Part shown: piece after piece, positions 1,961 to 10,748 of the stretch
Layout of the letters: each line of letters begins with the position of its first letter
Position numbering within the stretch: the stretch's first letter is position 1
Virus record (IMG/VR): IMGVR_UViG_2541047680_000005
DNA from: a virus
Lineage: Duplodnaviria; Heunggongvirae; Uroviricota; Caudoviricetes
Length of the DNA stretch: 12,296 nt
Reading direction: 5' to 3' (one strand)
The notes under the pieces: model-generated
Told to the model about the DNA's origin: nothing
The model's input: the letters and a program-made list of their open reading frames with translations, nothing else
Database searches by the model: none
Program-made: the position numbers and the translations under genes

Positions 1961-2182
1961 ATGAAACCAGAAGAACTTATTCGCCACTTTGGCAGTGTAG
2001 AAAAAGCAGCGGCTGGGGTAGGTGTAACACCCGGTGCTGTTTACCAATGGTTAACCGCTGGAGAGATTCCTTCATTGCGGCAAAGTGATATTGAAGTTCG
2101 TACTGCTTACAAGCTGAAGAGTGACTTTACAACTCGGCGGGTAAAGCAGTCGATTAAGGAGAGCCGTAAGCGTGGAGCTTGA
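1961..2182 (+). CDS. cro: Cro-like DNA-binding protein
   Basis: Track ORF 1934..2182; from Met10 the protein MKPEELIRHFGSVEKAAAGVGVTPGAVYQWL resembles P22 Cro as I recall it (MYKKDVIDHFG...ISDAAVSQW). Start at 1961 is preferred over 1934 on that alignment; neither has a strong SD, so the message may be nearly leaderless. Confidence 0.8.
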   Translation: MKPEELIRHFGSVEKAAAGVGVTPGAVYQWLTAGEIPSLRQSDIEVRTAYKLKSDFTTRRVKQSIKESRKRGA

Positions 2183-2882
2183 GTATATACGCAGCTGCGT
2201 CTCCACGGCATTGGCTGATATTCATTATCGCCAGCGTGGCATCCTAGAGGTCCAGCTTGAGCAGATGCGTCTAGGCAGATCAGGACGCTTTAACAATAAA
2301 CCAGTCCGGTCAATCAGTGTAGGTGATGATAACTCATACGAAGTGTCCGTTCCTGCTGAGCCGGTTAGATTCCACCAGGGGAAAACATTTAAACAATCAT
2401 CAATGTTGCTCACTGATATTGATTTTCAGAGCGCCAGCTGGCGCAGGGCTATTGGTCAGTTGAATAACGAGGAATCAGCCTGGCTTTATTATTGCTACGG
2501 ATGCAAGCCTGATTACAACAATGATGTGATTGTTTGTCAGTGGTTATGGCTTGATTTTCTGGTTGCTCATTCGGGGGGCGGCTTTAAAAAAATGAAGGCC
2601 TCCACGAAAAAAGCCATGCGGAAATTGATTTATTACGCGGCACAGCAGGTTAAATCAGAACTTACGTGTGCTGAGGCAGTTGATGAGAGAGAACAGGACA
2701 GGCATCTGAGTTTTCTACTGAATATATCTATTGATAGCTGGAGACAAGATTATAAAGAACGCTGGCTTTTAATTAAGTCGCGATGTCTGAGCTTAAATCG
2801 AACTGCATTATTAAATGCGGCGGAGAAGCGCAGTGAAATCATCAAACGCCATCGGGCAGGAAGTGCCATTCTGCCTTTGTAA
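2172..2882 (+). CDS. Hypothetical early protein (236 aa) immediately after cro; possible regulator
   Basis: GTG start at 2172 with AAGGAG 11 nt upstream, overlapping the cro stop. No motif I can assign with confidence. Position matches where cII or Q-like regulators sit in some temperate phages, but that is positional only. Confidence 0.6.
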   Translation: MELEYIRSCVSTALADIHYRQRGILEVQLEQMRLGRSGRFNNKPVRSISVGDDNSYEVSVPAEPVRFHQGKTFKQSSMLLTDIDFQSASWRRAIGQLNNEESAWLYYCYGCKPDYNNDVIVCQWLWLDFLVAHSGGGFKKMKASTKKAMRKLIYYAAQQVKSELTCAEAVDEREQDRHLSFLLNISIDSWRQDYKERWLLIKSRCLSLNRTALLNAAEKRSEIIKRHRAGSAILPL

Positions 2883-3135
2883 ACAAGTTATGTTCAGGAA
2901 ACCGTCGAAGCCAGAATTAAGGTATTCGGGGGTAAGAAATGAATATGTTATCTGGTGTCCAACTTGTGGTTACAGGACACGACCAGATAGTAATAAGCAG
3001 TCTGTAATTGCCGATTGGTATTTATCAAATCAGCCAGGTAATAAGCATATAGAAAATCTTTGGATTAAGCGTTACTTGGAAATCAGAGAGGGTGCGACCG
3101 TGGTCGCACAAGAAAATGAAAATAACGCCATTTAA
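2815..3135 (+). CDS. Small Cys-rich (CxC...CxxC) putative zinc-ribbon protein
   Basis: Track ORF. Contains FCLC and CPTCGY. Start is uncertain: ATG 2815 overlaps the upstream gene by 68 nt, and the alternative ATG at 2890 lacks an SD and would drop the first Cys pair. The last 15 codons include one copy of the 18-bp palindrome. Confidence 0.4.
   Translation: MRRRSAVKSSNAIGQEVPFCLCKQVMFRKPSKPELRYSGVRNEYVIWCPTCGYRTRPDSNKQSVIADWYLSNQPGNKHIENLWIKRYLEIREGATVVAQENENNAI
3092..3109. repeat. 18-bp palindrome copy 2 (GTGCGACCGTGGTCGCAC)
   Basis: Perfect 8-bp arms with GT centre; at the 3' end of ORF 2815..3135, where it again encodes ATVVAQ. Confidence 0.6.
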
Positions 3136-3145
3136 GCAGGGGCCG

Positions 3146-3319
3146 ATGACGCATGATGAAGCAGAGCGTCTTTCAGATACTTATCGGCGGCGTGGTAAGA
3201 AAGTTCTGGTTGTTCGTTCTGATTTTTTAGGTGATGGATATTGCGTTTATGTTCATTTACCTGAATCAGAAAGAACGCCAAAACCATCCAGAACATATCA
3301 ACAGAAAATTTGGGTATAG
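3146..3319 (+). CDS. Small hypothetical protein (57 aa)
   Basis: Track ORF 3092..3319 begins at a GTG inside the palindrome (an artefact). The in-frame ATG at 3146 has GCAGGGG 4-9 nt upstream and follows the previous stop at 3135. Confidence 0.3.
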   Translation: MTHDEAERLSDTYRRRGKKVLVVRSDFLGDGYCVYVHLPESERTPKPSRTYQQKIWV

Positions 3320-3342
3320 ATAAACGTTGAGGAGAATTATTC

Positions 3343-3942
3343 GTGACTAATCAGATTATTTACGACAGGAAACGGTCTGATGTAATGATTGACCTTGAAA
3401 CAATGGGTACTAACACATGTGCTCCAATTGTTTCTATCGGGGCAGTGTTTTTTTCTCCAGAAAGTGAGGAATTAGGTCCTACTTTTTATGTACCAGTGAA
3501 TCTCAGAAGCTCGATGTTGAATGGTGGTGTCGCCGATGGTGATACCATTTTATGGTGGTTGAAACAGAGCAAGGAAGCCAGAGCCGCAATTTGTACTAAT
3601 GATGCCCTTGATATTAAGGATGCACTTTTTGAATTATCACACTTTATTACTTGCCATGCATGTAATTTAAAAAAATTGAAAGTATGGGGAAATGGAGCAA
3701 CGTTCGATAATGTGATTTTACGCGGTGCTTATGAGCGCGTTGGCTTAGCCTGTCCGTGGGAATATTTTAATGATCAGGATGTTCGAACAATCGTTAATCT
3801 TGGTCAGTTTATTGGTTTTAATCCTAAAAAAGATATGCCATTTGATGGCGAACGACACAATGCCCTGGCTGATGCTATTCATCAGGCTAAATATGTATCC
3901 GCAATTTTCTCCCGTCTTGTAAAAGGGCAAGGAGAATCGTAA
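3343..3942 (+). CDS. DEDDh-family 3'-5' exonuclease (DnaQ-like fold)
   Basis: GTG start with GAGGAG 8 nt upstream. Motifs: MIDLETMG (Exo I, D-x-E), a central Asp-containing segment, and HNALADAIH (Exo III, H-x4-D). Confidence 0.8.
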   Translation: MTNQIIYDRKRSDVMIDLETMGTNTCAPIVSIGAVFFSPESEELGPTFYVPVNLRSSMLNGGVADGDTILWWLKQSKEARAAICTNDALDIKDALFELSHFITCHACNLKKLKVWGNGATFDNVILRGAYERVGLACPWEYFNDQDVRTIVNLGQFIGFNPKKDMPFDGERHNALADAIHQAKYVSAIFSRLVKGQGES

Positions 3943-4361
3943 TGGCAAAGGCTTTTACACCAGAACAGAGGGAAGAACTGAATAAACAAATTGTGGAACT
4001 CGTGCGCCTGAATGGACGAGGAACGGTTAGACAACTTGCGGATGAAACTGGTATTAGCCGGTGTGCTGTTAGTCGTTTATCAAGAGAGCTTGCTGCCAGT
4101 GGTGATTTGTATATCTCTGGCTCCGGGATATTTCTGTCTGCACAAGCACGCAAGGACTGGCAAAACGCCCGTAAAAAACTATCAAGAGTAAAGCCGAAGA
4201 AATCGGTAGTGGTTGATCCAGACCTTATCTGGTCATTACCTGACGGAGAAATACGTCGTTACGACAGGCGCTTGAACATGATTTGTCACGATTGCCGGAA
4301 AAGTGAAGTTATGCAGCGTGTGCTGGCTTTTTATCAGGGAAATTTACAGGAGGTGGCGTAG
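3942..4361 (+). CDS. Putative helix-turn-helix DNA-binding protein
   Basis: ATG overlaps the upstream stop (TAATG). N-terminal TVRQLADETGISRCAVSRLSRELAASGDL is HTH-like. Confidence 0.65.
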   Translation: MAKAFTPEQREELNKQIVELVRLNGRGTVRQLADETGISRCAVSRLSRELAASGDLYISGSGIFLSAQARKDWQNARKKLSRVKPKKSVVVDPDLIWSLPDGEIRRYDRRLNMICHDCRKSEVMQRVLAFYQGNLQEVA

Positions 4362-4651
4362 TGAATATCGACACCACGATAACGATCGATACGGCCCTAA
4401 ATATCGGTCTGGCACTTCTCGGTTGGTTTTACATCATGTTCAGCGCAGGGAAGTGGGCGGCCACTGTTTTTCTAAAACAGTGGAAAAAACGGCGCAAACA
4501 GGAGCTACGCCAGAAGGCATTAGAAGCGTTCTATGACGCATTTGAACTTAACAGCATTGAACCAGGCACAACAGTCAGAGTGGCAACCAAAGGTGATCTG
4601 ATGATCATGATGTTCCGACAGGAGAAAGCAGAGAAAGGGGAATCCGCATGA
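4361..4651 (+). CDS. Small membrane-anchored protein (one predicted TM helix)
   Basis: GTG start overlapping the upstream stop. Hydrophobic segment LNIGLALLGWFYIMFSAG is followed by a basic stretch KQWKKRRKQELRQK. Confidence 0.55.
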   Translation: MNIDTTITIDTALNIGLALLGWFYIMFSAGKWAATVFLKQWKKRRKQELRQKALEAFYDAFELNSIEPGTTVRVATKGDLMIMMFRQEKAEKGESA

Positions 4652-5307
4652 AATTTTCCAAATTTTCTGAGTTGGTGAATCGTATCTTGTCCAACAAACA
4701 CAGCCAGCGTTGCGATATGGATGTAACAATCGTTATTCATTCGCCTGGCAGCATTGGTTCAACACCCTCAGTTGAGGTTCAGTCAATTCACGCTGGTTTT
4801 GATTGGGATTCCGGGAAAGTGCTGATTTTCCCAGCACAGCCACTGACCACGCTAACACCAGAACAGATTACTGATATTACTGATAGTGTGCGCAAAGGTC
4901 AGTCCTGGCACGCATATCAGGAATACAAGAAGCATAAAGAGCAGTTGGAAAAATTGTCGATTGAACTGGATGCTGCAAAACAGCGCGTAGCAGAACTGGA
5001 AGCCAAACCTGTAAGCCAAACTTACAAGTTAACTTTTGAGCAATGGCTGGAACAGCAGCATGACAAAATTGATGTTGATTGTGGATGTGTAAGTACTGAA
5101 ATGTTTATGCACTGGATAAGGGTCGCGTATGAGGCTGGCAACTCTCCGGTAACTCCGGATGGTCATGTTCAGTTTTCTGTTTCACTTCCTGCAGCGTTTG
5201 GTGGAGATAAATATTTTATTGATGGTGTATTTCAACCTTTGAGATATGAGCGTGACTGTGAAAGGGCGGTTGTGGCCGCTGGCGGTGTAGTTAGTTGGGT
5301 TAAGTAA
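4648..5307 (+). CDS. Hypothetical protein (219 aa) with central coiled-coil segment
   Basis: ATG overlaps the upstream stop (ATGA). Central KEQLEKLSIELDAAKQRVAELEAK is coiled-coil-like. No assignable catalytic motif. Confidence 0.65.
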   Translation: MKFSKFSELVNRILSNKHSQRCDMDVTIVIHSPGSIGSTPSVEVQSIHAGFDWDSGKVLIFPAQPLTTLTPEQITDITDSVRKGQSWHAYQEYKKHKEQLEKLSIELDAAKQRVAELEAKPVSQTYKLTFEQWLEQQHDKIDVDCGCVSTEMFMHWIRVAYEAGNSPVTPDGHVQFSVSLPAAFGGDKYFIDGVFQPLRYERDCERAVVAAGGVVSWVK

Positions 5308-5322
5308 TTTTCAGGAGGATTT

Positions 5323-5649
5323 ATGGCGCTGACACCGGCAGAACGGCAAAGGAGACGCAGGGAACGGTTGAAGAAGGAAGGCACATCAAGACGGGACTGG
5401 ATTCTAGAACCTGACGAGTTACGTATGTTGGGGGAAATTTGTGTATTGCGTAGACCAGGGCGAGTTCCATATTCGGAGAACGAAGTCATTGGTTTGCTGA
5501 TCAGGAAAAACTATAAGGAGCTGCAGAAGCAGCTATCTACTACTTGCCCGCGATGTGGTCAAAAAATGCCTGTTTCAGAATGCATTTTTGATGGCGAAGG
5601 GTCATGCCACCTTACAACCACGAGGCTGAAACTTGCGCTCAAAGTGTGA
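5323..5649 (+). CDS. Hypothetical protein with Arg-rich N-terminus and C-terminal Cys cluster
   Basis: Good SD (CAGGAGG) 6 nt before the ATG. N-terminus LTPAERQRRRRERLKK; C-terminal CPRCGQ...C...C. Confidence 0.6.
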   Translation: MALTPAERQRRRRERLKKEGTSRRDWILEPDELRMLGEICVLRRPGRVPYSENEVIGLLIRKNYKELQKQLSTTCPRCGQKMPVSECIFDGEGSCHLTTTRLKLALKV

Positions 5650-5667
5650 CTGGTCACGGAGGGATAA

Positions 5668-5910
5668 ATGGATAAAAAGGCATTGCTTTTTGAAATGATA
5701 CGAAAACGGAGCGAAAAGAGCTTTTCTGATGGTGGTGATGGGTTTGTTTTCGCTTCGATGCTTGCTTTTGATGTTGGGTTAAATAGCAGAATTGTTAAAA
5801 GGATGCTTGATTCTGCTGTCCGTACTGGACTTCTTGAGAAAGTTGATCGTGGCATAGGGAGAGAGCATAAGTATCGGGTCACACAGCAGTTTACGCAGTT
5901 AATTCATTGA
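5668..5910 (+). CDS. Hypothetical small protein (80 aa), possibly winged-helix
   Basis: SD GGAGGG 5 nt upstream of the ATG. No diagnostic motif. Confidence 0.55.
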   Translation: MDKKALLFEMIRKRSEKSFSDGGDGFVFASMLAFDVGLNSRIVKRMLDSAVRTGLLEKVDRGIGREHKYRVTQQFTQLIH

Positions 5911-5992
5911 AAATTGACCGTAAAGTTTGAGTTTTATCCTGTAATTTTATACAGTATAAAAAACCTTTTTTAGTTAAATGGTATGAGATTTA

Positions 5993-6196
5993 ATGTCTGA
6001 AGCAGCCGTATCAACTCTTGAACAACTCGATTCAAATTTGAGAGATATTGACGCCGTTCTGGATCTGGTTAGCGTCACCCTGGCTTCTCCAGAAGCCAGC
6101 CTACATATTGGTGAGGTTTCACGACTCATCAACATGTCGCGAGAGATTGCCCAGCATTGTCAGAAAACTATCGCTGTTGAGCGTTCACATCATTGA
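5993..6196 (+). CDS. Hypothetical small acidic protein (67 aa)
   Basis: Preceded by an AT-rich intergenic region with TTGACC at 5914..5919 and TATAAA-like hexamers at 5948..5961. Weak SD. Convergent with the antitoxin gene. Confidence 0.4.
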   Translation: MSEAAVSTLEQLDSNLRDIDAVLDLVSVTLASPEASLHIGEVSRLINMSREIAQHCQKTIAVERSHH

Positions 6197-6238
6197 TGCA
6201 CACCCCGCCCTTCTGGACGGGGTAGTAAAAGAGTCTAA

Positions 6239-6526
6239 TTAATAAACAGCGCGAATATCGATGGTTGCGCCGCAGGCATGAGCATATTTAGCCAAAGTTT
6301 TCATACTTGCCCCTAAAGGATTGCTTTCCAGGCGGCTGATGGCTGACGGTCGCAACCCCATTCGTTCAGCCAGAGCTGATTTCGTTAAACCTGCTCTTTC
6401 CCTCATTTCGTATAACATTTCGACCATCTCCAGCTCTTTGTCGGCCTCTTCATATCCTTTGACGGCTTCTGGAGTGTTGAGGAGTTTTTCTTTTACTTCG
6501 TTAAACGGGATGCCTTTCGCTTTCAT
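6239..6526 (-). CDS. HigA-like antitoxin (XRE-family HTH)
   Basis: 95 aa, with HTH segment LTKSALAERMGLRPSAISRLE. The start overlaps the toxin stop (ATGA at 6526) and the gene lies downstream of the toxin, the HigBA-type order. Confidence 0.8.
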   Translation of the reverse strand: MKAKGIPFNEVKEKLLNTPEAVKGYEEADKELEMVEMLYEMRERAGLTKSALAERMGLRPSAISRLESNPLGASMKTLAKYAHACGATIDIRAVY

Positions 6527-6837
6527 CAGTTCATCTCCTTCAGGCGAGTTCTGGCGATTTCGATAGCCTTCACCGGTGTTTTCTGTGTCTTTTTTACAAA
6601 TGCATGCAATAGATAAATTTCGTTACCAGTCGCGTAGGCGTACAGCGTTCTTGCGATGTTTTTATCCCCTACTCGTAGTTCAAAAAGCCCTCCACCTATT
6701 ACACGGCTATGGGGCATCTTCAGTTTGTTGCCTTCCTTCTCCAGTCGCTCAATTAATCTGGTCATGCGACCTCGCAAATCATCTGGTAGTTCAAGCAGTT
6801 CATCCAGTGCTGCAGGGTGGGTTATCACGTTAAACAT
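6526..6837 (-). CDS. RelE/ParE-superfamily toxin of the HigB / phage Gp49-like group
   Basis: 103 aa; size, toxin-first order and overall sequence resemble the Gp49-like (DUF891) killer proteins as I recall them; the family is named after phage N15 gp49. Confidence 0.75.
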   Translation of the reverse strand: MFNVITHPAALDELLELPDDLRGRMTRLIERLEKEGNKLKMPHSRVIGGGLFELRVGDKNIARTLYAYATGNEIYLLHAFVKKTQKTPVKAIEIARTRLKEMN

Positions 6838-7470: not shown

Positions 7471-7488
7471 GTGCGACCACGGTCGCAC
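7471..7488. repeat. 18-bp palindrome copy 3 (GTGCGACCACGGTCGCAC, arms extend to 10 bp)
   Basis: Begins 6 bp after the stop of gene 7238..7465, at the head of the structured noncoding region. Confidence 0.6.
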
Positions 7489-7573
7489 AGCACAAAAACG
7501 AAAAAGCTTGGCAAAATTACGGTTTTTAGTTATTGTTTTGTTAAGTTGGGTTTTTTGTACCCAACAGCCAACA

Positions 7574-7597
7574 AGCCGCCTTTATGGCGGTTTTTTT
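7574..7597 (+). terminator. Intrinsic terminator (short GC stem CCGCC / GGCGG, loop TTTAT, then T7)
   Basis: Stem 7576..7580 / 7586..7590 followed by TTTTTTT at 7591..7597; downstream of the small-gene pair and upstream of the methyltransferase. Confidence 0.5.
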
Positions 7598-7614
7598 GTG
7601 CCTGAAAAGTGGGC

Positions 7615-7640
7615 GCAGGACAAGTTGCAGCTTGTCCTGC
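7615..7640. repeat. Perfect 10-bp inverted repeat GCAGGACAAG-TTGCAG-CTTGTCCTGC
   Basis: Read directly; no T-tract follows, so not a classic terminator. Candidate protein-binding site or RNA stem-loop. Confidence 0.5.
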
Positions 7641-7684
7641 GGTCAACCCATGCCAGAGCTATAGGCTGAACCTAAAGCCCACCC

Positions 7685-7698
7685 GCGATGCGCATCGC
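7685..7698. repeat. Perfect 14-bp palindrome GCGATGCGCATCGC
   Basis: Read directly; contains the ATG at 7688 that the ORF track uses as the methyltransferase start. Confidence 0.45.
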
Positions 7699-7732
7699 CG
7701 GGTTAGCTTACCCAGGCAAAAAAATAATAGCT

Positions 7733-8809
7733 ATGTTCAAAACCACTAATATTCATGGCGCGCAACTCGTTTGCGCAGATTCTCTGCAATTTATCAAAAC
7801 CATCCCTGATAACTCGGTCAATTTGATTGCAACAGACCCACCATACTTCGGCGTAAAGGCTAACGCATGGGATAACCAGTGGGATAGCGATGCTGACTTT
7901 TTGGGGTGGATTGATGAATTTTTGGCAGAATTTTGGCGGATATTGGCCCCTAATGGCAGCCTGTATATGTTTACCGGCTCTCGCCTTGCGTCAAAAATTG
8001 AATTATTAACTCGCGACCGTTTCAATGTTCTGAACCATATCATTTGGGCTAAACCCAGTGGTATGTGGCGCGGTTGTCATAAAGAAAGTTTAAGGGCTTA
8101 TTTTCCTGCCACTGAAAGAATATTATTTGCAGAGCATTACGGCGCGTCAGGTTATGCTAAAGGTCAGTCAGGTTATGCTTCAAAATGTGCAGATTTAAGA
8201 AAAAATATTTTTTCTCCACTAATTGATGCTTTTTCGCTGGCTCGCCGTCAGTTAGATATATCAGCCGCAGACATTAATTCAGCAACAGGAAAGCAGATGT
8301 GTTCGCACTGGTTTTCTTATTCGCAGTGGCGGCTTCCATCATTAAGTGATTTTAATAAACTATGCGAATTATTTCGCAGGAAGGCAGATTCACTCGGTGT
8401 CCCGTGTCCATATCCTTTTAATGTTGATTATTCAGAACATGAAAAGCGTTATAGCGATCTGAAATTGCGTTATGAGGAAGTAAAGAAGCAGTATGATGAT
8501 TTGAAGGCTCAGTATGAAAATTTGCGCCGCCCATTTCATGTTACTGCTGATGTACCTTATACCGATGTATGGGAGTTTCCTCCTGTGCAATATTATCCTG
8601 GCAAGCACCCATGTGAAAAACCTGCAGCGATGATGGAACATATTATAAAAAGTAGTTCCCGCTCCGGAGATATCGTTGCCGATTTCTTTATGGGATCAGG
8701 CTCTACTATTAAAGCCGCGCTGAAGTTAGGTCGTCAGGCAATCGGTATTGAGATTGAGGGTGAACGTTATCTTCAGACAGTTGATGAAGTGAAAAAGTTA
8801 TTTGAGTAA
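7733..8809 (+). CDS. Orphan beta-class DNA methyltransferase (N6-adenine or N4-cytosine)
   Basis: DPPY (motif IV) near the N-terminus in NLIATDPPYFG and FFMGSGST (motif I, AdoMet binding) near the C-terminus; this motif order defines the beta class. A coiled-coil-like insert (YSDLKLRYEEVKKQYDDLKAQYENLRR) lies between them. Start ATG 7733 chosen so DPPY sits ~35 aa from the N-terminus; the ATG at 7688 is possible. No restriction endonuclease partner is visible. Confidence 0.8.
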   Translation: MFKTTNIHGAQLVCADSLQFIKTIPDNSVNLIATDPPYFGVKANAWDNQWDSDADFLGWIDEFLAEFWRILAPNGSLYMFTGSRLASKIELLTRDRFNVLNHIIWAKPSGMWRGCHKESLRAYFPATERILFAEHYGASGYAKGQSGYASKCADLRKNIFSPLIDAFSLARRQLDISAADINSATGKQMCSHWFSYSQWRLPSLSDFNKLCELFRRKADSLGVPCPYPFNVDYSEHEKRYSDLKLRYEEVKKQYDDLKAQYENLRRPFHVTADVPYTDVWEFPPVQYYPGKHPCEKPAAMMEHIIKSSSRSGDIVADFFMGSGSTIKAALKLGRQAIGIEIEGERYLQTVDEVKKLFE

Positions 8810-9177: not shown

Positions 9178-9674
9178 TGCAGTCATCATTACGCAAAGCT
9201 GTCGCAACAGCTATTGGTGGCGGGGCTATTGCCATAGCATCTGTGCTCATCTCTGGTCCGAGCGGCAACGATGGTCTGGAAGGTGTGAGACATAACCCCT
9301 ACAAAGACATCGTTGGTGTATGGACTGTATGTTACGGGCATACAGGAAAAGACATTATGCTCGGTAAAACGTATACCGAAGCAGAATGCAAAGCTCTCCT
9401 GAATAAAGACCTTGCTACTGTCGCCAGACAAATTAACCCGTACATCAAAGTCGATATACCGGAAACAACGCGTGGTGCTCTTTACTCGTTCGTTTACAAC
9501 GTGGGTGCAGGCAATTTCAGAACATCGACACTTCTTCGCAAAATCAACCAGGGCGATATCAAAGGTGCATGTGATCAACTACGTCGCTGGACATATGCTG
9601 GCGGTAAGCAATGGAAAGGGCTGATGACTCGCCGTGAGATTGAGCGTGAAGTCTGTTTGTGGGGGCAGCAATGA
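9174..9674 (+). CDS. SAR endolysin (T4-lysozyme-like, GH24)
   Basis: N-terminal Gly/Ala-rich weakly hydrophobic segment [20 protein letters not shown] (signal-arrest-release type). Catalytic E-x8-D-x5-T spacing in [17 protein letters not shown]. Start overlaps the holin stop. Confidence 0.9.
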
Positions 9675-10138
9675 GCAGAGTAACCGCAATTATCTCCGCA
9701 CTGGTTATCTGCATCATCGTCTGCCTGTCGTGGGCTGTTAATCATTACCGTGATAACGCCATCGCCTACAAAGAACAGCGTGATAAAAAAGTCAGTGAGC
9801 TGAAGCAGGCGACCGCCACCATCGCTGACATGCAGCAGCGTCAGCGTGATGTTGCTGCGCTCGATGCAAAATACACGAAGGAGTTGGCTGATGCGAAAGC
9901 TGAAAATGATGCTCTTCGGCGCAAGCTTGATAATGGTGGTCGGGTGCTCGTCAAAGGAAAATGCTCTGTGCCATCCTCAGCCGAAACCTCCAGCGCCTCC
10001 GGCATGGGCAATGATGCCACCGTCGAACTCTCTCCAGTTGCTGGACGAAACGTTCTCGGTATCCGGGACGGAATCATCAGAGACCAGACAGCACTGAGAA
10101 CGCTTCAGGAATACATCAAGACGCAATGCCCGAATTAA
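9671..10138 (+). CDS. Rz: Rz-like inner-membrane spanin
   Basis: ATG 9671 overlaps the endolysin stop, with GGGGG 5 nt upstream. N-terminal TM helix [18 protein letters not shown], then a coiled-coil-like periplasmic domain. Contains the Rz1 gene in the +1 frame. Confidence 0.85.
9891..10097 (+). CDS. Rz1: Rz1-like outer-membrane lipoprotein spanin, embedded in Rz
   Basis: [44 protein letters not shown]: lipobox VVGC and a Pro-rich mature region, closely resembling lambda Rz1 as I recall it (MLKLKMML...VVVGCTSK...PPPPPAW). AAGGAG 7 nt upstream of the ATG. Confidence 0.8.
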
Positions 10139-10179: not shown

Positions 10180-10491
10180 ATGAAAATTTATATTGCCGGG
10201 CCAATGACTGGATATGAGAACTTTAATCGTGACGCCTTTAATAAAGAGGCAGATCGTTTGTCACGACATGGTCACTCTGTCTTGAATCCAGCCACTTTGC
10301 CTAATGGTCTGACACAACGTGAATACATGGATATTTGCTTTGCAATGCTTCGTTGTGCTGATGCTATTTTGATGCTTCCTGGCTGGAAAGCGTCTGCTGG
10401 AGCAACTGCTGAGTATCATTACGCATACAAGATGGAGATGCCGGTATTCACTACGCTGAATTACCCGCCAGCTTGTTCCTCTGTAGCATAA
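10180..10491 (+). CDS. DUF4406-like protein (nucleoside 2-deoxyribosyltransferase-like fold)
   Basis: 103 aa beginning MKIYIAGPMTGYENFNRDAF, the N-terminal signature of this phage-associated family as I recall it. Function unknown. Confidence 0.6.
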   Translation: MKIYIAGPMTGYENFNRDAFNKEADRLSRHGHSVLNPATLPNGLTQREYMDICFAMLRCADAILMLPGWKASAGATAEYHYAYKMEMPVFTTLNYPPACSSVA

Positions 10492-10510: not shown

Positions 10511-10528
10511 GTGCGACCGTGGTCGCAC
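10511..10528. repeat. 18-bp palindrome copy 4 (GTGCGACCGTGGTCGCAC)
   Basis: 20 bp after the stop of the DUF4406-like gene. Confidence 0.6.
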
Positions 10529-10730: not shown

Positions 10731-10748
10731 GTGCGACCGTGGTCGCAC
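10731..10748. repeat. 18-bp palindrome copy 5 (GTGCGACCGTGGTCGCAC)
   Basis: 24 bp upstream of the start codon of gene 10772..11632; with copy 4 it brackets a ~200-bp noncoding stretch. Confidence 0.6.

Follow-up and report, generated by a model that had tools for sequence, protein, structure and literature searches.

The closest described systems to the DNA considered here are phage N15 and its relatives, in whose right arm the genes follow the order repA, cB, cro, Q and small genes, then a convergent toxin-antitoxin pair, gp50, gp51 and a DNA methylase, and then holin, lysozyme and Rz. In N15 and phiKO2 the CB repressor binds the operators OR1-OR3 and represses the cro promoters, and Q affects lysis and lysogeny in vivo (PMC4997575). 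The N15 repressor does not cleave itself (it is non-proteolytic); antirepression removes it instead (PMC10432266). Induction begins with AntC, an antirepressor under LexA control whose gene lies outside the immunity region (PMC3121763, PMC4488713). In Pfam the Q82 family of Q antiterminators is PF06323; its mechanism is still open (PMC9388147). Here we describe positions 2172-5910 of a 12,296-nucleotide (nt) stretch from IMG/VR record IMGVR_UViG_2541047680_000005; the whole stretch is referred to as the window. On the sequence evidence this block is very probably the ordinary early rightward operon of an N15-like linear plasmid-prophage, with a late switch driven by Q.

In a megablast search of phage records, Escherichia phage PhiR46_1 (PV340565) matched the window over its full length with 99.3% DNA identity and YDC107_1 (CP025712) matched it with 99.0% identity; both belong to the genus Ravinvirus. 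Because of these two matches, and because the relatives carry the N15 right-arm order, we identify the window by its sequence as part of an N15-like (Ravinvirus) linear plasmid-prophage of E. coli. Megablast also returned N15, phiKO2 and Klebsiella telomere phages, with ~75% identity to the left third of the window, and the gene order is syntenic with N15 genes 37-59. An almost intact copy of the block at 2172-5910 was present in 17 of 5426 complete E. coli genomes, where it is carried on ~46-kb plasmids. PhiR46_1, YDC107_1 and these plasmids (e.g. NZ_CP101200) are 98-99% identical throughout the operon and agree in their gene calls, the names given to the plasmid genes by the Prokaryotic Genome Annotation Pipeline (PGAP) being ‘bacteriophage antitermination protein Q’, ‘3'-5' exonuclease’, ‘DUF977 family’, ‘DUF4752 family’, ‘DUF551 domain-containing’ and ‘hypothetical’. 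As a system this is already known: GenBank/RefSeq records contain the element, its arrangement of genes and its Q, all following the N15 model, and the accessory genes also appear in public records, mostly without a tested function. It should be noted that plasmids H97 and H103-H106, which are otherwise 97-98% identical, contain an extra ~830-bp insertion within the operon; each gives a match in two parts which together extend over 4555-4570 bp vs 3739 bp.

The N15 immB and right-arm early operon (comprising Q, which is gene 40, the open reading frame (ORF) QD1 and genes 41-47) and the window share the order repA, OL, cB, OR1-3, cro, Q, QD1 and IR2, followed by a small ORF and a DEDDh exonuclease and then, after an intervening set of genes, gp46, gp47, an antC-like ORF and the convergent toxin-antitoxin pair, and finally gp50, gp51, IR3, the late promoter and terminator, the methylase and the lysis genes. 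Identities to the N15 proteins were 67% for Q (N15 gp40), 78% for QD1, 79% for gp46 and 68% for gp47. The genes of the operon in the window are as follows:

1961-2182, + strand: cro, 73 amino acids (aa), first gene of the operon; PF14549 (P22_Cro), E = 2.4e-22
2172-2882, + strand: Q, 236 aa, predicted late-gene antiterminator of the Q82 family; PF06323
2833-3135, + strand: QD1, Lar-like Cys4 zinc ribbon, 100 aa (106 aa from ATG 2815), starting inside the 3' end of Q in another frame
3116-3319, + strand: 67-aa protein; phrog_1212, E = 1.8e-25; alternative starts GTG 3092 and ATG 3146
3343-3942, + strand: DEDDh 3'-5' exonuclease, Rv2179c-like, 199 aa; PF16473, E = 4.4e-68, 228.9 bits (cut-off 27)
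3942-4361, + strand: DUF977 and lambda-Ren-like protein, 139 aa, with an N-terminal winged-helix motif; PF06163, E = 3.9e-29; HTH_24, E = 5.7e-4
4361-4651, + strand: DUF4752 protein, 96 aa; PF15944, E = 4.3e-41; one hydrophobic helix at about residues 12-38
4648-5307, + strand: modular protein, 219 aa, in which an N-terminal domain is followed by a coiled coil (about residues 85-120) and a variable C-terminal part
5323-5649, + strand: homologue of N15 gp46, 108 aa
5668-5910, + strand: homologue of N15 gp47, 80 aa, last gene of the block; phrog_13995, E = 1.9e-47

The initial annotation had described 2172-5910 as a rightward early operon made up of seven or eight tightly coupled small genes. 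The ORF list bears out both the same-strand chain of tightly packed ORFs and an early operon which starts at cro, and brings the number of ORFs within 2172-5910 to nine; the conserved 67-aa ORF at 3116-3319 had been missed. The stop/start overlaps can all be read in the sequence where they had been named: TAATG at 3940-3944, in which the exonuclease stop overlaps the next start, TAGTG at 4359-4363 (containing the GTG at 4361), in which the DUF977 stop and the DUF4752 start region overlap, and ATGA at 4648-4651, shared by the DUF4752 and 219-aa ORFs. Cro and Q overlap by 11 nt and Q and the Lar-like ORF by 50 nt (from GTG 2833) or 68 nt (from ATG 2815), with the other intergenic gaps ranging from -4 to +23 nt, or from +10 to +23 nt where there is no overlap. 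The start of cro, previously placed at 1934, is moved to the ATG at 1961, which alignment showed to be the start kept in N15 and phiKO2. Shine-Dalgarno-like motifs (GAGGAG, AGGAGA, GGAGGTGG, AGGAGGA and GGAGGG) lie 6-8 nt 5' of most starts, and GC skew is positive throughout the block. A pattern scan for terminators of the intrinsic type, with Rho-dependent termination outside its reach, found no strong + strand terminator within 2172-5910, a promoter scan found no better-than-chance promoter cluster there, and the N15 record U45242 annotates no terminator after Q.

For the six ORFs common to N15 and/or phiKO2, differences per nonsynonymous site (pN) were 0.12-0.34 and differences per synonymous site (pS) were 0.67-0.87; because pN is far below pS, protein-level selection, and with it translation, is supported for these ORFs. 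The remaining four ORFs have strong matches to family hidden Markov models (HMMs). The ORFs do not all match well-characterised replication or recombination proteins, and selection on the six shared ORFs speaks against several of the genes being untranslated. Within the window no Rfam family exceeded its threshold and no tRNAs were found, a scan of NCBIfam added only a sub-threshold Lar match, and PDB sequence searches with Q, QD1, the 67-aa ORF, the DUF4752 protein, the 219-aa protein and gp47 returned no meaningful relative. Gene order, overlaps, family memberships, conservation and cis sites are direct observations on the window.

The strongest call of all the ORFs is the 236-aa protein directly after cro, which by family membership is the late antiterminator Q. 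It matched PF06323 with 283.1 bits (cut-off 25) and E = 2e-84, with residues 2-229 aligned to profile positions 2-219/220, and phrog_304 with E = 2.4e-72. Compared with N15, pN was 0.19 and pS 0.69. This exact sequence is already named ‘bacteriophage antitermination protein Q’ at NCBI; in the PhiR46_1 annotation Q is a ‘hypothetical protein’. The initial annotation had reserved its only confident call for the exonuclease, and had supposed that one of the genes might be the late antiterminator; the second point holds, with Q as the gene in question and as the better-supported of the two calls (the exonuclease is indeed present, as detailed below). A PDB search found no solved structure matching Q by sequence. 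The likely target of Q, predicted from conservation and from promoter and terminator scans, is the late promoter and terminator at 7508-7599:

7471-7488, no strand: IR3 centromere palindrome, between the gp51 homologue and the methylase gene
7508-7536, + strand: predicted late promoter (TTGGCA at 7508-7513, 17-nt spacer, TATTGT at 7531-7536), from the promoter scan
7542-7547, + strand: -10-like TAAGTT, within a short conserved initial transcribed block
7573-7599, + strand: predicted intrinsic terminator, a hairpin followed by T7, from the terminator scan

N15 carries annotations for the corresponding -35, -10 and terminator, and phiKO2 has the label ‘putative late promoter’. The promoter-terminator cassette can be aligned across six telomere phages, one of them PY54 of Yersinia; the terminator stem shows compensatory changes, and in all six TAAGTT (TATGTT in phiKO2) followed by GG is found just 3' of the -10. 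The full-length HMM match, and a late promoter which closely precedes an intrinsic terminator before the lysis genes, are shared with the lambdoid phages that have Q82-family Qs. However, Q is here the second early gene, directly after cro and without an N-dependent delay, whereas its target would lie 4.6 kb away and is flanked by a SopB centromere site.

Conservation across the six telomere phages, PY54 among them, extends to the late leader at 7594-7732, between the terminator and the methylase start, for which a four-helix RNA structure is supported from a sample of only two or three independent lineages. In its helices 93.9% of cells were paired vs 13-42% with the partners slid, and nine pairs were changed on both sides vs at most one in the slid controls; the leader matched no Rfam family. 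The methylase start differs by record (at the equivalent of 7688 in PhiR46_1 and of 7733 in YDC107_1, with the gene running to 8809). The N15 RefSeq start lies ~230 nt inside a conserved ATG which is kept in all six phages and which is at 7733 in the window.

Control of the operon can be compared with N15 through the following sites, one group upstream of cro and another beyond the end of the block:

1892-1907, no strand: CB operator OR3 (TTATAGCTGGCTATAA)
1918-1933, no strand: CB operator OR2
1941-1956, no strand: CB operator OR1
5939-5954, no strand: LexA box (CTGTAATTTTATACAG), in the 82-nt gap after gp47; the sole CTGT-N8-ACAG in the 12.3-kb window
5993-6196, + strand: AntC-like ORF, 67 aa; phrog_6301, E = 1.8e-35

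The three 16-bp operators were mapped from the N15 record U45242 after alignment of the cB-cro spacer with N15 and phiKO2, and overlap the rightward early promoter(s); OR3 is identical to that of N15, and OR2 and OR1 have one to two changes. The LexA box is kept at the same place in N15, PhiR46_1 and YDC107_1 and is one mismatch off in phiKO2. The ORF which follows it has an unannotated counterpart (56% identical) at the equivalent place in N15, has a secondary match to phrog_10889 ‘anti-repressor’ (E = 6e-8) and is probably an AntC homologue. The initial annotation had suggested that antirepressors or Icd-like division inhibitors might be encoded within 2172-5910. Neither was found there, the probable antirepressor lying just outside with a LexA box of its own. 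In every public record examined the AntC-like ORF is a ‘hypothetical protein’.

Co-transcription, CB repression, antirepression and Q-dependent read-through are proposed here from homology and from the literature on N15, and would proceed as follows. In the lysogen, CB on OR1-OR3 (1892-1956) would keep the operon off. After DNA damage LexA would leave 5939-5954, the AntC-like antirepressor would be made and CB would be inactivated. Transcription from the OR region would then run through cro, Q and eight further genes to at least 5910, with no strong intrinsic terminator on the way, and Cro would shut off cB. As Q accumulates it would, on the model of the lambdoid Q systems (PMC9388147), load on RNA polymerase at the late promoter (7508-7536), 4.6 kb downstream, and the polymerase would read through the terminator at 7573-7599 into the methylase, the lysis genes and onward.

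Several points weigh against this account. The distance between Q and its presumed target sets it apart from the lambdoid phages, where the two are adjacent. Q-binding and pause elements are suggested by conservation and are not named from the sequence. The ‘anti-repressor’ PHROG is the second-best match of the AntC-like ORF, and it is we who infer the equation of that ORF with the published gene. The terminator scan is blind to Rho-dependent termination. Finally, the account comes from sequence comparison.

Next to the AntC-like ORF, a hairpin at 6200-6226 was considered as a terminator and dropped, being weak (z = -1.8) and without a U-tract. A pair of genes on the - strand at 6239-6837, homologous to N15 genes 48 and 49 and overlapping by 1 nt, encodes a 95-aa helix-turn-helix antitoxin-like protein and a 103-aa RelE/ParE-type toxin; this convergent pair ends head-on against the AntC-like ORF with only the weak hairpin between them.

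The core of the operon common to N15 and phiKO2 consists of QD1, the 67-aa protein, a DEDDh exonuclease (conserved in position and not in family), gp46 and gp47. QD1 is 72-78% identical in amino acid sequence to its N15 and phiKO2 counterparts (pN 0.12-0.16 vs pS 0.67-0.77) and matched phrog_6795 ‘Lar-like’ with E = 1.5e-45. The four zinc-ribbon cysteines (CxC...CxxC) are kept in the window, N15 and phiKO2. QD1 shares the Cys4 zinc-ribbon signature and PHROG 6795 with the Lar protein of Rac, but scores below the curated Lar cut-offs (21.1 bits vs 28.6 for Pfam PF14354 and 19.2 vs 39.6 for TIGR03655), the only strong match being that to the PHROG; a relationship to the Lar domain of N15 gp41 was rejected, as the two are not detectably similar. 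The start of the 67-aa ORF (pN 0.30 vs pS 0.72) is fixed at ATG 3116 by the start of the phrog_1212 profile and by MKxTPFKQGPM, which is kept in N15 and phiKO2. The gp47 homologue (pN 0.21 vs pS 0.87) had weak winged-helix-type matches and is possibly a winged helix. The N15 record NC_001901 lacks annotation for three conserved ORFs under selection, at 5672-5974 (QD1), 5955-6158 (the 67-aa ORF) and 9614-9832 (the antC-like ORF).

DNA similarity to N15 extends from the left end of the window to ~3150 and is found again from gp46 onward. In the interval after the small ORF and before gp46, N15 has gp41 (a fusion of RNase_T and Lar, the latter with 47.5 bits) and gp42-45.1, phiKO2 has gp39, a DnaQ-like exonuclease, with a methyltransferase and others, and the window has the Rv2179c-type exonuclease, the DUF977/Ren-like protein, the DUF4752 protein and the 219-aa protein. 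No similarity was detected in pairwise comparison of the window exonuclease, N15 gp41 and the phiKO2 exonuclease; the DEDDh exonuclease is fixed in position, not in family, across the three. We propose that the insert in the window is swappable and drawn from the E. coli prophage pool. Parts of it, including the DUF4752 gene, have 87-91% DNA identity to P1-like phage-plasmids.

Proteins which had been thought unassignable belong to defined families, these being DUF977/Ren-like, DUF4752, N15 gp46 and N15 gp47. The exonuclease has all five DEDDh residues (D17, E19, D122, H172 and D177). Among solved structures the closest to it in sequence is 8kel, deposited as ‘Exodeoxyribonuclease’ (E = 1.4e-7), whereas the Pfam name for PF16473 is exoribonuclease, and the substrate (RNA vs DNA) differs by label; PhiR46_1 has it as ‘exodeoxyribonuclease VIII’. 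Homologues were found in 722 phage records, among them that of P840, a telomere phage of Yersinia (61% identity). The Ren-like protein matched phrog_142 ‘Ren-like’ (E = 9.7e-42), as did lambda Ren (E = 1.6e-41), with which it shares the C-terminal motif CRxSxxMxRVLAxY. However, in direct BLASTP only the C-terminal 20 aa align (E = 9e-6), lambda Ren has 96 aa vs 139 aa here, and lambda Ren had no Pfam hit and so does not match DUF977. The DUF4752 protein has a Kyte-Doolittle 19-residue maximum of 1.55 at residues 12-30.

The 219-aa protein matched phrog_6026 (residues 1-113) and phrog_368. Its N-terminal 120 aa are 92% identical to gp60 of Punavirus Ro157c2YLVW, which likewise follows a DUF4752 gene, and its first ~180 aa are common to E. 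coli prophage proteins with DUF551 C-termini. The public labels of this protein differ and none of them was upheld: ‘Ea22’ (PhiR46_1) gave E = 18 in BLASTP against lambda Ea22, ‘pmgU domain protein’ (YDC107_1) failed a direct test, and for ‘DUF551 domain-containing’ (PGAP) there was no PF04448 hit, DUF551 being carried only by relatives with the other C-terminus. It also has no similarity to N15 gp45 or phiKO2 gp44.

As an observation from elsewhere, a distant prophage has an early operon which ends with a gp46-like gene and in which an Rv2179c-like exonuclease is found two genes from an Acb2/Tad1-hairpin (anti-CBASS/Thoeris type) gene, next to DUF4406 (coordinates 4138-4944 and 3667-4050 in that prophage). 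DUF4406 is also present in the window, at 10180-10491.

It is possible, if doubtful, that the genes behind Q form an anti-defence or host-takeover island, in which type I restriction would be countered by the Lar-like protein and Rex-type exclusion by the Ren-like protein, with the exonuclease directed at nucleic-acid signals or host DNA. Anti-defence roles are hinted at solely by the Lar-like and Ren-like family names, phrog_6795 being ‘Lar-like restriction alleviation’ and phrog_142, with lambda Ren as a member, ‘Ren-like exclusion protein’; the block between the 67-aa ORF and gp46 is also swapped among relatives in the style of an accessory island, and the distant prophage places a similar exonuclease close to an Acb2/Tad1-type gene. 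However, the Lar match falls under both the Pfam and the NCBIfam curated cut-offs, and in pairwise comparison lambda Ren is similar over 20 residues only. No match to PADLOC-DB was significant, although this library holds defence-system proteins and is without anti-defence models. A DEDDh exonuclease fixed in N15, phiKO2 and the window suits a core phage DNA function better than a gene of an arms race.

Such a function is the subject of a further tentative explanation, in which the exonuclease with the zinc ribbon and the small proteins would form a block for replication, proofreading or end processing. The original N15 annotation calls the gene at this place ‘dnq’, a DnaQ-like epsilon subunit. 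Three different DEDDh exonucleases are found at the same position after Q and IR2, N15 gp41 physically fuses the exonuclease to a Lar-type zinc ribbon, and 8kel was deposited as an exodeoxyribonuclease. Against this, repA alone is described as a replication gene in N15-type phages, family scans found no polymerase or recombinase in the block, and no similarity was detectable between the zinc ribbon of QD1 and the Lar domain of gp41. An operon of cro and Q only, with QD1 onward as separate transcription units or partly untranslated ORFs, is very unlikely, as QD1 starts 50 nt inside Q, so that any separating terminator or promoter would lie in coding sequence, while neither a strong + strand terminator nor a promoter cluster was found in 2172-5910, U45242 annotates no terminator after Q, and pN is far below pS in every shared ORF.

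Within the early operon of the N15-like plasmid-prophage, which remains our preferred reading, the gp46 homologue gained a fold-level prediction. With 15 close homologues AlphaFold2 gave an unusable model (predicted local distance difference test score 53.7), and the prediction was redone with 40 diverse sequences. The predicted structure has a basic N-terminal helix, a ribbon-helix-helix core with the beta-alpha-alpha fold and a C-terminal Cys4 zinc ribbon, and gp46 is predicted from it to be a DNA-binding regulator; compared with the ribbon-helix-helix (CopG/Arc/MetJ) regulators it adds the basic N-terminal helix and the CxxC...C...C zinc ribbon. The sole name in the libraries is the PHROG label ‘transcriptional regulator’. 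Membership of Pfam RHH_1 was not supported, a single one of 56 family members reaching it with E = 0.07, and Foldseek against viral predicted structures matched gp46 only at the zinc finger. A DksA/TraR type was rejected: TraR and YbiI reached E = 0.03 in a PDB profile search, PF01258 was absent in the 56 members, and the cysteine spacing differs.

An exhaustive profile search found ~106 clusters (at 50% identity) of gp46-like proteins, nearly all of 105-120 aa, with named members from Aeromonas, Yersinia, Photobacterium and Vibrio. The family is confined to prophages of gamma-proteobacteria, and R8, C75 and C78 are invariant with C95 nearly so. Five distant contexts, all of them prophage early regions, were compared. 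In three of these the gp46-like gene is located towards the 3' end of the early genes: a Yersinia prophage has it immediately ahead of the small terminase gene, a P2-like Aeromonas prophage has it between the replication gene on one side and ogr and the portal gene on the other, and in a third contig a lambda-type terminase follows shortly after it. In a fourth it is the last gene before the contig end, and in a Photobacterium contig it stands apart from any late genes. We raise as a speculative and rather unlikely idea, based on gene position and the predicted fold, that gp46 represents an unrecognised family of small phage developmental regulators which could act as a second switch of early and late timing beside or instead of Q. 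A related idea, equally speculative and on the same basis, is that QD1, the 67-aa protein and the interchangeable DEDDh exonuclease might work jointly as a single module.

The operon also contains a centromere site of the N15 type, one of a set in the window:

3092-3109, no strand: IR2-type SopB centromere palindrome (GTGCGACCGTGGTCGCAC), inside the operon
649-666, 3092-3109, 7471-7488, 10511-10528 and 10731-10748, no strand: copies of the palindrome GTGCGACCRYGGTCGCAC

The palindrome GTGCGACCRYGGTCGCAC (GTGCGACC-NN-GGTCGCAC) thus has five copies in the window vs 0 expected, and four in the aligned N15 stretch, at matching positions. Its core is that of the N15 IR1-IR4 oligonucleotides (PMC7205306 Table 4), and the five copies are predicted to be N15-type SopB sites. 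IR2 is written in the last codons of QD1 (G-A-T-V-V-A), 7 nt before the ATG of the 67-aa ORF, and phiKO2 annotates the equivalent site as a ‘putative plasmid partitioning site’. The 10511 and 10731 copies are 220 bp apart, in place of the single IR4 of N15; the latter has a T-rich tail on its 3' side and also scores as terminator-like.

In PY54 a different palindrome, TGGGACCATGGTCCCA, is found upstream of the late promoter (at ~95-110 of the PY54 stretch compared), where the N15 group has IR3; by this comparison the placement of a centromere site beside the late promoter is kept although its sequence differs. The half-sites of TGGGACCATGGTCCCA are ones which we take to resemble the SopB-binding repeat in F sopC. 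The N15 Sop system reportedly facilitates late gene expression, going by the title of a 2008 paper cited in PMC11652158. To the left of the last two copies, a gene for an Rz-like spanin at 9659-10138 contains an embedded ORF at 9846-10097 in another frame, whose lipobox-like LIMVVGC and proline-rich tail are what one would expect of Rz1.

The value of these results as discovery is small, and the practical gain is corrected annotation. The ‘236-aa unknown’ is Q by family match, the Ea22, pmgU and DUF551 labels on the 219-aa protein are unsupported, gaps in the N15 reference record at QD1, the 67-aa ORF and the antC-like ORF can be filled, and gp46 gains its fold-level prediction. Phage-plasmids of the N15 type are often found in E. 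coli and Klebsiella. Q82 is the only Q family with a mechanism still unsolved, and the compact conserved pair of Q and late promoter could serve as a test substrate for it. If the idea raised for gp46 were true, this family would provide a second timing switch between early and late transcription.

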